Source: Bacteroidota bacterium
Lineage (GTDB): Bacteria > Bacteroidota > Bacteroidia > Chitinophagales > UBA10324
NCBI GenBank assembly: GCA_014190535.1
Contig: BJGO01000004.1
Span: forward strand, 1 to 33,618
DNA: 33,618 nucleotides
Direction of reading: 5' to 3'
In this document: in pieces, positions 20,071-23,781 of the stretch
How positions within the stretch are numbered: the first letter of the stretch is position 1
How the letters are laid out: each line of letters begins with the position of its first letter
Translations under genes and position numbers: made by a program
Notes under the pieces: generated by a model
What the model was told of the DNA's origin: nothing
Seen by the model: only the letters and a program-made list of their open reading frames with translations
The model's database searches: none

Positions 20071-20225
20071 CAGTCATTTTTATTGATACTCTCACAAGAA
20101 ATTCTCTGAATAATTCATCTTAGCAGAAGATTTTTAAAAAGTTTAATGTTAACCGGCTTTAAGCAAGTTGCTACCAATTATAGGAATACAAGACCTAATT
20201 CATTAAATCTCCAGACAAACAAGAA

Positions 20226-20957
20226 ATGCCATTTACATTTTCACATCCGGCCATAGTTTTACCGTTGACATTTTTGCCTCGGCAATGGTTTTCTTTAACC
20301 GGACTTGTAATCGGCAGTTTGATACCTGACTTTGAATATTTTTTAAGAATGAGAATTAAGAGTACTTACAGCCACACAATCGACGGACTTTTTTGGTTTG
20401 ATTTACCCTTGGGACTATTGCTCGCTTTTATTTTTCACAACACGGTTCGGAATCGTTTATACGACAATTTGCCTGCATTTTTAAAATCAAGATTTTTAAC
20501 TTTTAAGCAGTTTAACTGGAATAGACACTTCAAAAGAAACTGGTTTGTAGTGGCTATTTCAATTCTTATCGGTGCCGCTTCACATATTTTTTGGGACGGT
20601 TTTACACACGACCACGGTTATTTCGTTCAGGCAATTCCGCAATTGCAAAACGAAGTGAACCTATTAGGCGAACAAATTCCAATTTTAAAAATATTGCAAC
20701 ACAGCTCCACGTTGCTCGGCGCACTTGTAATTGCTTTTGCTATTTACAAACTGCCAATAAACAAGACTGGAAAACAAAATATTAGTTTGAAATACTGGTC
20801 CATTTTATCAGCATTAACATTAACCATAGTTGCAGTCAGACTTTTAAGCGGACTTGAACTGAAACCATACGGAAATATAATTGCGACAACAATTTCGGCA
20901 GGACTAATGTCATTGATATTGACCTCTGTAATTTTTATTAAATCCAATAAACAGTGA
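20226..20957 (+). CDS. DUF4184 family membrane protein (putative metal-dependent hydrolase-like)
   Basis: MPFTFSHPA, GSLIPDFEYF, SHT, SHIFWDGFTH, LQHSST. Confidence 0.82.
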   Translation: MPFTFSHPAIVLPLTFLPRQWFSLTGLVIGSLIPDFEYFLRMRIKSTYSHTIDGLFWFDLPLGLLLAFIFHNTVRNRLYDNLPAFLKSRFLTFKQFNWNRHFKRNWFVVAISILIGAASHIFWDGFTHDHGYFVQAIPQLQNEVNLLGEQIPILKILQHSSTLLGALVIAFAIYKLPINKTGKQNISLKYWSILSALTLTIVAVRLLSGLELKPYGNIIATTISAGLMSLILTSVIFIKSNKQ

Positions 20958-21358
20958 TTGCGTATTTTAAAAAAGCTTTTTATACTATCCGGTTTATTAC
21001 CTGCAACTTATTTCTTAGGGTTGACCCTCTTTTTTTTACCTCACAGGACAAAGAACTTATCTTTTGAATTAGTTGATATTTTAATAGTTACATCCATGTT
21101 TTTTGAAATTTATGGCTGTATCAGTTTATTACTTTCTTGGCTACCTATACTGTAACATAAGTACTTGTTAAAATGTATTTTTTTAGTTCTTGGGATTATA
21201 GGTTCTATAACATTTACAACAATCGAAGGCGTAAAACAGTGTGGACTTGGGTTTTAAATATTGAAGAACCTGTCGAATGGATTATACGGGTTTGGCCTCT
21301 AATCGTATCAACGGTATTAATAGGTTCAAAGAGCACGAAATTATTCAATAAAAATTAA
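20958..21358 (+). pseudogene. Decayed small multi-TM membrane protein gene
   Basis: The hydrophobic reading continues past TAA 21153-21155 (HKYLLKCIFLVLGIIGSITFTTIEG). A one-base loss near 21230 joins it to KTVWTWVLNIEEPVEWIIRVWPLIV. Confidence 0.65.
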
Positions 21359-21481
21359 GGATAGATGATATCCACACAGACCTCATAAAGCCTTAACTAT
21401 CTTACACCTAATGATCTCGCACCAGAAATTGTAAATTCGTATAGTAAACTAATAACTGATCGAATACCGGGAAGATTACAA

Positions 21482-22291
21482 ATGAATCTGGATATTTTAG
21501 ATATAGAATATAAATTAACGAACGAACAAATTCAATTTTATAAAGAACAAGGCTTTGTAAAATTAAAAAATGTTTTGCCGCCAGATATTATTCGATATTT
21601 CAATACAGAGATTTCGAGAAAGGTTAATCAATTAAACACTAACGAAGTTCCATTTGAGCATAGAAACACATACGGAAAAGCTTTTTTGCAGTTATTTAAT
21701 CTTTGGAGAGAAGATCGTAACGTTAAGCTGTTTGTTTTTAGTAAAAGATTGGCCCAAATTGCAAGTGAATTGATGCAAGTCAATGGAGTTAGATTATATC
21801 ATGACCAAGCCCTTTTTAAAGAAGCCGGCGGAGGAATTACACCTTGGCACGCAGATCAGCATTATTGGCCATTATCATCCGATAAAGCCATAACCGCATG
21901 GATACCCTTGCAAAATACACCTCTTGACATGGGGCCACTCGAATTCAGTGCAGGAAGCCAGAATGTTATCACGGGCAGGGAGTTGTCGATCAGCGATAAA
22001 AGCGAAGCTGTGATAAAAAAGAATCTCAAGGTTAATAATTTCCCTCAAGTAATAGAACCATTTGACATCGGAGAAGTGAGCTTCCATTCCGGTTGGGTTT
22101 TTCATAGGGCTGGTGCAAATACTTCCGATCAAATCAGAAAAGTTATGACAATCATCTATATCGACAAGAATATGACTTTAAAAGAGCCTGAAAACAAAGG
22201 ACAATTAAATGATTGGAAAACTTGGTGTCCAAATGCAAAAATTGGGGAGGTTATCCATACACCATTGAATCCTATCCTATATACAAAATAA
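21482..22291 (+). CDS. PhyH family Fe(II)/2-oxoglutarate dioxygenase
   Basis: QIQFYKEQGF, DQALFK, TPWHADQ (HxD), WIPL, GPLEF, FHSGWVFHRAGAN, R-K-V-M. Confidence 0.88.
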   Translation: MNLDILDIEYKLTNEQIQFYKEQGFVKLKNVLPPDIIRYFNTEISRKVNQLNTNEVPFEHRNTYGKAFLQLFNLWREDRNVKLFVFSKRLAQIASELMQVNGVRLYHDQALFKEAGGGITPWHADQHYWPLSSDKAITAWIPLQNTPLDMGPLEFSAGSQNVITGRELSISDKSEAVIKKNLKVNNFPQVIEPFDIGEVSFHSGWVFHRAGANTSDQIRKVMTIIYIDKNMTLKEPENKGQLNDWKTWCPNAKIGEVIHTPLNPILYTK

Positions 22292-22438
22292 CTCATGCTA
22301 CATTATTTAAGCAACCTTGCCTTGCCTCGTAAATGCGGTCTAACGCATAGCAACATCGTCTACACGCAAACCGTAAGGCTCTGAAATAACTAATAATATA
22401 TCGAATCAGTATTTTTTTGTTGCTCATATATGCTTCTG

Positions 22439-22475
22439 TTGCTTCATAACATTCATTTATGCGAAGCCTGTTTTC
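22439..22475. repeat. 37-bp direct repeat copy 1 (dif/tyrosine-recombinase-site-like)
   Basis: TTGCTTCATAA-CATTCAT-TTATGCGAAGC-CTGTTTTC; 32/37 identical to 23396-23432. Confidence 0.7.
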
Positions 22476-22647
22476 AAGTGTCTATGTTCTATTTTTATCT
22501 TAGTGGTATGATGTAGTTTATATAATGATAAGAAGACATGAAAAAACTTCATTGACTAGATTGTAACAAGCACTTTGGGTATTTGAATTGTGGATAGTAT
22601 TTTCACAGTCTGCCATTGTATGCCATAAACAAACAAATAATGATAAT

Positions 22648-23219
22648 ATGAATAACGTTAAATTAATTCTAGTAATGTCATTTCTTCTAGTGACATTTAT
22701 TACAAATGCACAAATTACAGTTTATCGAACTTATGAGGATTTCCAAAATAAAAGAGGGGAAGAATATGATGATTATTGGGGTTACATTCACAGTATGGGG
22801 AGTGTTAAATTAATATTTAAAAAAGATAAAAAGAAAATCAATATTCACTGTAGCGATATATGGGGGTTTATTTACAAAGATGTTTTTTTAGGATTGATAA
22901 AAAATATAATCAGCCTACAAGAGTTATAAGTACCGGCAAGATAATTTATTACGAAAATGGTATAGCAAACCTTAGCATGTTACGAGATAATTCAGAAATA
23001 GGAGCGTTTAAAATTGGTTACTATTGCTATATCTCAAAGAGTATTGACTCTGAATTGATTCCTATGCCGCAGGGCCAATTTAATTCTGATTTAAGAAAAA
23101 AGGTTACAAAATTCAAGGAAGAAAACCCTGAGTACAAGGAACTATTTGATTGTATAGATAATAACTATAATTACCTTAGTGTTCGATCTTGTGTTGTAAA
23201 ATTCGAAAAAAGTGAATAA
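22648..23219 (+). pseudogene. Exported hypothetical protein split by a -1 frameshift at a T7 run
   Basis: Signal peptide ending TNA-Q. The ORF switches frame at GAT GTT TTT TTA GG (T7, 22883-22889); one extra T gives continuous WGFIYKDVFFRIDKKY. Confidence 0.7.
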
Positions 23220-23230
23220 TACGGCACACA

Positions 23231-23380
23231 ATCGAGTAGACGGCCTCGCCAGTTGTAACGGACGAGGTGCGCCTCTCACATCACTGTACGTGCGTGTCTT
23301 GAATACAACGGTTCATTATGTTTTAGAGCTACTTATTGGTAATGTTCAAGCAATGATTCGCAACCTCGTTTTCGCAATCG
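23231..23380 (-). mobile_element. 5'-truncated, degenerate group IIC intron remnant (RT/maturase C-terminus, DV, DVI)
   Basis: The minus strand reads GAACCGTTGTAT..ACGTACAGTGATGTGAGAGG (DV, 23272-23314), then DVI GAGAGGCG..CGTCT-A-CTC with the bulged A 7 nt from a terminal AT. Translation RLRKRGCESLLEHYQ*VALKHNEPLYSRHARTVM* resembles the EPPY.RP.RTVV* tail of IIC RTs. Confidence 0.85.
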
Positions 23381-23395
23381 TATCCATATAACCGA

Positions 23396-23432
23396 TTGCT
23401 TCATAAGGTTCATTTAAGCGATGCCTGTATTC
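23396..23432. repeat. 37-bp direct repeat copy 2
   Basis: TTGCTTCATAA-GGTTCAT-TTAAGCGATGC-CTGTATTC; 957 bp from copy 1 and adjacent to the intron truncation point. Confidence 0.7.
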
Positions 23433-23781
23433 TGGTTTTTGTTGCGAACAGGTTATCCGTTTATAGTCCGCTTACTTTTATACTGTAGTTTGAAAACAGT
23501 TGCGCAGTGTGATGTAGTGTAAGCTTACCCATTATTCGACCAGTTAGTAGTTGACTTTATGAATTAACAATAGCCTTCAATAAAACGGCAGGTGCCGGGT
23601 TATTAAATGCTTTGTGTTGCCTGTGATCGTTTCGCATAAGATCAGAAACAATTCGTATAAGCACCTGCTATCTGATCCTGAAATAGCAAACAACCTGTCT
23701 ATATCATTTTCCTATTCATTATCAAAGACTCTTTTTTTTGCTTTTATTTGAAAGCTGATAACACGAATACCCACCAAAAAA

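Follow-up and report, generated by a model that had tools for sequence, protein, structure and literature searches.

What is the short piece of group II intron that lies antisense behind a small gene in this Bacteroidota genome, and what kind of site did the intron enter? The window, that is, the whole stretch of DNA analysed here, is an entire contig (C4; 33,618 nucleotides) of a 2.6-Mb genome assembled in 261 contigs, and its mobile-element matches point to Bacteroidota. Around the remnant, from about 20170 to 23520, the DNA is AT-rich and contains small genes, with housekeeping genes on either side. In the reading that we favour, with a probability of roughly 0.8, this inactive 3' end comes from a Bacteroidota class C intron that was inserted antisense in the R'' box of an attC-like cassette end and was then fused to a MITE. 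The identity, orientation and decay of the intron, its fusion point and the target habit of its relatives are observed; the order of events that connects them is reconstructed below.

Window positions 23231-23406 hold, on the minus strand, what is left of a class C group II intron, a dead 3' end (Table 1). The first-pass annotation, which was based on the letters alone, had described a domain V (DV) with nine of ten lower-stem pairs, a CGT triad and a broken upper stem, followed by domain VI (DVI), a terminal AT and a prematurely stopped tail of the reverse transcriptase (RT). All of these elements are read in the sequence; its remnant end at 23380 had to be moved, as intron sequence extends to 23406. 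The nine lower-stem pairs of DV include G-U, the single mismatch is C-A, and the triad at 23310-23308 is altered from the CGC that relatives keep. DVI folds with a z-score of -3.4, and an equally good fold occurs in one of 200 shuffled sequences; DV and DVI jointly fold at chance level (z -1.1), compared with -6.1 and -5.5 in two intact relatives. The RT tail demonstrates 49% identity to residues 389-437 of an intact relative's RT (tblastn, E 2.4e-7), a protein that passes TIGR04416 and aligns over its full length with the references of a panel composed of class C-type RTs only. An nhmmer profile of the relatives' 3' ends matched window positions 23391-23231 at E 6.7e-34 and gave a single further match in the rest of the genome, on contig C61 (E 5e-28), the next best having an E value of 1.4.

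The same annotation had counted on a minus-strand hit to the Rfam model RF00029 and had taken its absence as grounds for rejection. Rfam scans of the window gave neither this match nor anything else relevant, and a genome-wide search assigns 12.9 bits (E 9) to the remnant; this miss is uninformative for the lineage, because two intact relatives also fall below the cut-off of 40 bits (39.4 and 39.7), and rejection on that ground is not valid. DNA matches to the remnant are present in 20 of 401 genomes of the phylum, its own genome counted, and the same stretch is carried by contigs of other studies, which rules out an assembly artefact. The 5' GUGYG end and domain I, both present in 47 complete relatives, have been deleted from the window, and tblastn detected no full-length RT of this intron family in the source genome. 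Two candidate readings were rejected: GTGCG-like letters near 23445, considered as the intron 5' end, lie inside the MITE in apparent transposase coding sequence, and the intron-MITE chimera, considered as an active mini-intron, is missing domain I. The remnant copy is inactive and has no evident function.

Table 1. Features in and around the intron remnant (window coordinates)
Feature	Position	Strand	Details
Intron DVI	23277-23231	minus	bulged A at 23237, terminal AT at 23232-23231
Intron DV, damaged	23312-23280	minus	triad CGT, lower-stem mismatch, upper stem broken
RT/maturase ORF, C-terminal tail	23282-23406	minus	premature TAA at 23335-23333
R'' half of attC-like site (intron 3' exon)	23220-23230	plus	R'' matrix score, tet(X2) match
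Cassette-type hypothetical gene	22648-23219	plus	upstream of intron remnant, convergent with intron
11-nt microhomology, fusion point	23396-23406		letters common to intron and MITE
Internal MITE fragment	23396-23518		further internal deletion; cut at 23518
Decayed copy of 344-bp MITE	22373-22614		blastn and profile, 80% identity; upstream cassette boundary
Short unrelated repeat truncating the MITE	23518-23571	plus	further copies at 21428-21480 (minus) and on contigs C7, C66 and C100

What survives of the target is the 3' exon of the intron, which starts TGTGTGCCGT, 11 nt past the stop codon of the convergent gene. On a matrix built from the exons of 75 relatives, positions 23220-23230 outscore 99.1% of random 20-mers, at 3.9 bits versus a median of 9.8 bits for the training exons; the exon of the C61 copy does not rise over background on the same matrix. 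The window exon agrees with the R'' side of a natural empty tet(X2) site in nine of 11 letters, and its R'' box matches RYYYAAC in six of seven positions, counting the inferred AC. Model R1, whose best score in the window is 10.8 bits, detected no complete palindrome, L boxes or R' at the intron site and no intact attC-like site anywhere in the window. With the hairpin lost, all that marks the site is its R'' half, and we infer the former complete site, as neither hairpin nor 5' exon is left there. The scar likely marks a former cassette boundary.

The gene that ends at this scar is frameshifted near 22882 in this assembly; its reading frame is unbroken in three other runs and also in a homolog from a metagenome. 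Its upstream boundary is of the R' type, with an eroded core (ATT for GTT) at 22615-22617. At the syntenic spot of a congener, G525, a dioxygenase gene is directly followed by another gene, and no empty allele is available. Elsewhere in the patch, a DUF4184 gene (20167-20957) begins after a GTT core, and its leader and start resemble, by eye, the cassette after an attC-like site in the Kaistella locus L100. A second short gene (20958-21358) is apparently split into two ORFs, and one other run has a 1-nt insertion at 21037 within it. The contig starts with two REP-like direct repeats of 66 nt (1-143) that are 97% identical.

The target habit of this intron family was derived from its relatives. 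A contig scan provided 74 loci (from the best 80 of 117 confirmed matches), to which two plasmid copies were added; these 76 loci contain 81 intron 3' ends and 47 complete introns, and 36 unique complete relatives were kept once tandem copies, short flanks and duplicates had been dropped. The 5' exons end in TGT (28/36), GGT (7/36) or TGA (1/36), and the 3' exon begins with T in 35 of the 36 relatives; 35 sites read GT/N, at most 34 read GT/T by position counts, and the fourth base before the insertion site is T in 19. On the opposite strand, the rebuilt sites show an R''-like box, split at A/AC, ahead of a palindrome that spans 57-136 nt and closes with CGTT; the boxes R'', L'', L' and R' are named as in PMC7923331. 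A palindrome-arm score, designed together with its thresholds after the sites had been seen, was passed by 27 of the 36 rebuilt sites, versus 2.7% of 3000 AAC positions taken at random and 3.6% of shuffled sequences, and failed by the other nine. A looser hairpin heuristic had returned 309 genome hits, mostly false, and was replaced by the tighter version. Complete palindromes with L boxes and R' were identified at five other places in the source genome. As to neighbouring genes, the end of a convergent ORF lies no more than 80 nt away in 20 of the 33 relatives with enough flank, and the remaining 13 have none under this rule; a same-strand ORF ends at this distance in two of 36, the random figure being 15%.

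These counts support the conclusion that the relatives insert antisense at the R'' box of long palindromes, not after terminators. They also bear on a simpler account, in which an ordinary terminator-type class C intron landed ectopically and the cassette look of its surroundings is coincidental. Class C introns do mostly follow terminators, as described in PMC4424553, and no hairpin is demonstrable at the site; yet in addition to the near-absence of same-strand genes, at least five T among the last eight exon bases were found in just four of the 36 relatives, whereas six terminator-type class C references from other phyla have a hairpin and a T-rich run instead. The terminator-targeting introns L121, L123, L124, L127, L128 and L133 share the RNA class, the CGC triad and a length of 1.8-1.9 kb with the Bacteroidota family and differ from it in following a same-strand hairpin and T-rich run, whereas the Bacteroidota introns lie antisense at cassette ends. 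Moreover, the gene at 22648-23219 has its independent upstream boundary. Largely refuted by the exon counts and arm scores of the relatives and by the tet(X) alleles described below, a coincidental landing is highly improbable. Among other members of the family, L013, L015, L016 and L055 have apparently lost the ORF and kept domains I-III and V-VI, and L044, L054 and L089 contain full-length introns in head-to-tail tandem.

Natural filled and empty alleles of the same kind of site were found at tet(X) genes (L035:2880-3090, on a tet(X4) plasmid; L220 and L221:2907-3060). A 3' relic of this intron family, roughly 190 nt long, is located 22 nt past the stop codon of tet(X4), and 208 plasmid records cover the tet(X4)-relic query. 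At the same position, tet(X2) of Empedobacter and Bacteroides fragilis possesses an uninterrupted attC-like site (85 and 82 bits with a model built from 33 natural sites), and tet(X2) has cassette-type boundaries on both sides. This pair of alleles, filled in tet(X4) and empty in tet(X2), fixes the exact insertion point.

Against this background, most of what had been proposed from the letters of the window can be assigned a place. The antisense insertion, described as matching the geometry of IIC-attC introns, agrees with the orientation in the window and with the excess of convergent over same-strand genes among the relatives, and the tabulated insertion sites of full-length copies proved to be mostly cassette-end R'' boxes rather than post-terminator positions. 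The uninterrupted site had been written as GT followed by the present 3' exon; the exon is read directly, and the GT comes from the relatives, the 5' exon being deleted. The claim that the intron marks a cassette-type hairpin is borne out by the relatives, the tet(X) alleles and the boundary at 22615, and has to be narrowed at the locus itself to an R'' half with no local hairpin.

The other partner of the fusion belongs to a family of 344-bp MITEs with inverted ends, which probably derive from IS1182. This origin is suggested by locus L076, which has an end in common with the MITE as well as a peptide resembling that of the MITE; there, this end flanks a transposase fragment matching NF033551 (E 2e-11); the peptide fragment of the MITE in the source genome has no family match, and its likeness to the L076 peptide was judged by eye. 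The position of the MITE is the R' core of attC-like sites: on one side, six of six readable ends come after the inner side of R', and on the other side, 11 of 13 ends directly precede GTT. All five intact attC-like sites of the source genome run into a MITE end. Members of the family were observed on contigs C4, C14, C16, C54, C61, C63, C76, C86, C92 and C114 and, further, on C154, C218, C241 and C251. The short repeat that cuts the MITE fragment at 23518 begins with TGT, faces outward on both sides of the block from PhyH to the intron, and also truncates MITE copies.

A plausible history would start from a full-length intron and a full hairpin standing at the end of the gene 22648-23219. By retrohoming, the intron probably entered the R'' box of this attC-like hairpin in antisense orientation, and it may have recognised the folded bottom strand, by analogy with the published IIC-attC introns. 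The MITE would have entered that site at its R' box, and a later microhomology-guided deletion likely fused the intron tail to it. One such deletion could have removed about 1.7 kb of the intron together with the hairpin body and one MITE end, and the cassette 22648-23219 would no longer be excisable. In support of this history, locus L076 has the layout of the precursor, with an IS1182 fragment in R' and a full intron in R'' at the two ends of one site. In addition, longer copies on contigs of runs X2 and X4, from two other studies, part from the window sequence at precisely position 23406; past this point, the X2 contig continues as RT coding sequence of the intron ORF.

The fusion point of the window recurs on contig C61, with a different 3' exon, and on C16 of the congener G525, in an undeleted IS form, and G525:C27 has a second, different intron-IS junction. 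The same intron species has left decayed 3' remnants at G000:C61:14112-14418 and on G525 contigs C16, C27 and C8. Recurrence of one junction with different neighbours, together with the second junction, may also reflect a remnant that was born truncated, when the target was joined to the intron 3' end only and the 11-nt microhomology guided the ligation of a partial cDNA to the nearby MITE. The many 3'-only pieces away from contig edges among the fetched loci point in the same direction, but these loci were fetched by 3'-end queries, which biases the excess of such pieces. Repeated deletion at one microhomology predicts identical junctions as well, and bacterial introns usually end in decay and truncation according to PMC4424553; a truncated birth appears quite unlikely.

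Another possibility is that the intron-MITE fusion happened a single time and then spread to further cassette ends through recombination in the shared intron tail, in which case the scar in the window may be second-hand. The window and C61 copies align without a break for about 290 nt, a stretch that includes the fusion point as well as a second deletion inside the MITE, and their similarity ends one base past the intron end, as such copying would have it. However, a stand-alone MITE on contig C9 resembles the deleted variant, so the second deletion may be older than the fusion; in G525:C16, the IS at this junction is undeleted; and the window and C61 copies are merely 77% identical. We regard a single origin as rather unlikely, and it would change how the scar arose but leave the kind of site as it is. 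The three histories, namely repeated deletion, integration of a truncated intron and spread by recombination, are not yet distinguishable, the deletion history being the simplest.

The named comparison for this family is the proteobacterial IIC-attC introns, S.ma.I2 and its kin in PMC3001079 and the integron-borne L116, L119, L130 and L131. IIC-attC introns are defined in PMC3001079 as a monophyletic subset, and PMC7923331 describes their insertion at TTGT/T in R''. Both groups have a class C RT without an endonuclease-sized extension and insert antisense in the R'' box at a TGT/T core, with a hairpin replacing the terminator. In contrast to the IIC-attC introns, the Bacteroidota family forms a separate RT clade in the best trees, has T at position -4 in only 19 of the 36 sites, and targets mostly palindromes of about 130 nt that are unlinked to IntI; the window copy, moreover, is dead.

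The RT phylogeny rests on the relatives, the window tail being too short for placement. Two unrooted trees were built, a quick tree of 50 rows, one of them (L009_1) on a long branch, and a careful tree of 32 of these rows; L126 was counted in the attC group as its nearest relative, its own site being unconfirmed. In both trees, one clade holds the Bacteroidota family (100/100) and another the integron-borne IIC-attC references (100/100), and the proteobacterial attC introns cluster with proteobacterial non-attC class C introns (98 SH-aLRT; 99/98). The kinship with IIC-attC introns raised by the first-pass annotation is thus not recovered in the best tree, which places the family outside their clade, and is left standing by the AU test, which does not reject a joint clade (p 0.096). 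A common origin, in which the family would be one branch of the published lineage of IIC-attC introns and owe its attC targeting to a shared ancestor, would agree with this test and with the strand, box and TGT/T core shared with the introns of PMC7923331; it is doubtful given the proteobacterial clustering apart from the Bacteroidota clade in both trees and the RT identity of about 36-39% to the integron-borne introns. In its target habit, the intron appears to work like an IIC-attC intron, and membership of that lineage is not established in the trees. As a separate observation, locus L132 (3090-3200) has a class C intron outside the IIC-attC clade within a class 1 integron; this intron has the same direction as the cassettes and ends at an apparent R' core before qacE-delta1.

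Which system do the target sites belong to? In the alignment of the 33 natural sites, 93.8% of cells are paired versus 32-39% in slid controls, a covariation to be read with the caveat that the structure comes from the same alignment and that the sites were selected for arm pairing. None of the 151 Bacteroidia genomes searched, including the unpublished G471, which enters this tally only, has a protein above the TIGR02249 (IntI) cut-off. Many of them encode IntI-like proteins; 24 such loci were examined, two of them without a full ORF, and the IntI insertion, as it is named in the published integron literature, is missing in 22 of 22 aligned proteins. Linkage was assessed in 20 loci (L161-L180) chosen from the top TIGR02249 hits. 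Downstream of these insertion-less recombinases, 37 sites were found in 173 kb, 36 of them on the same strand, versus none in 102 kb upstream, and 14 of the 20 loci head co-directional arrays of attC-like sites of about 130 nt. The same scan of the 2.6-Mb source genome gave four sites; a cassette recombinase was not found in its 261-contig assembly, which encodes XerC and XerD only, and is present in three of five close relatives. From this linkage, we place the sites in a probable integron-like system, whose recombinase would be IntI-like and lack the IntI insertion.

Among known systems, integrons and CALINs, as described in PMC4889954 and PMC9024848, share the unit of a gene and an imperfect R''...R' palindrome, the arrays, and boundaries at GTT. 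They differ from the Bacteroidota loci, where the linked recombinases lack the IntI insertion and have the same direction as the cassettes and where no IntI above the cut-off was found in any of the Bacteroidia genomes searched. IntegronFinder 2.0 is reported in PMC9024848 to have found a single complete integron in Bacteroidetes proper. The closest published system that we found, compared by its description only, is the rAID-1 arrays of Bacteroidales (bioRxiv 10.1101/471110), with an XerD-like recombinase, co-directional downstream genes and intergenic repeats reminiscent of integrons; these are described as immunity arrays of gut Bacteroidales, and the accessible description does not define attC boxes or introns. 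IS1111-attC, as presented in PMC3001079, is another mobile element that targets cassette sites. In the literature covered, we found no account of attC-targeting introns in Bacteroidota, of which papers from 2008-2009 might list cases, nor, with subscription literature thinly covered, of IS1182 in attC or of a tet(X) cassette with an intron relic.

A broader proposal, which we hold with evenly divided confidence, is that attC targeting arose independently in Bacteroidota class C introns, within a cassette system of insertion-less recombinases that includes tet(X) and in which repeated fusions of intron tails with R'-targeting IS1182-derived MITEs lock cassettes in place. The value of the dead copy in the window is that of a marker, not of an activity. 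In Bacteroidota palindromes, a presumably hairpin-reading RNA enzyme chooses the box, strand and core that IIC-attC introns use in true attC sites, and this choice lends independent support to the view that these palindromes fold and act like attC. The relic behind tet(X4) bears on the origin of that resistance gene. Two testable questions are raised: did attC targeting arise twice in class C introns, and can a recombinase without the IntI insertion recombine single-stranded hairpin sites? If the proposal is true, Bacteroidota would possess a widespread integron-like system that standard integron searches miss.
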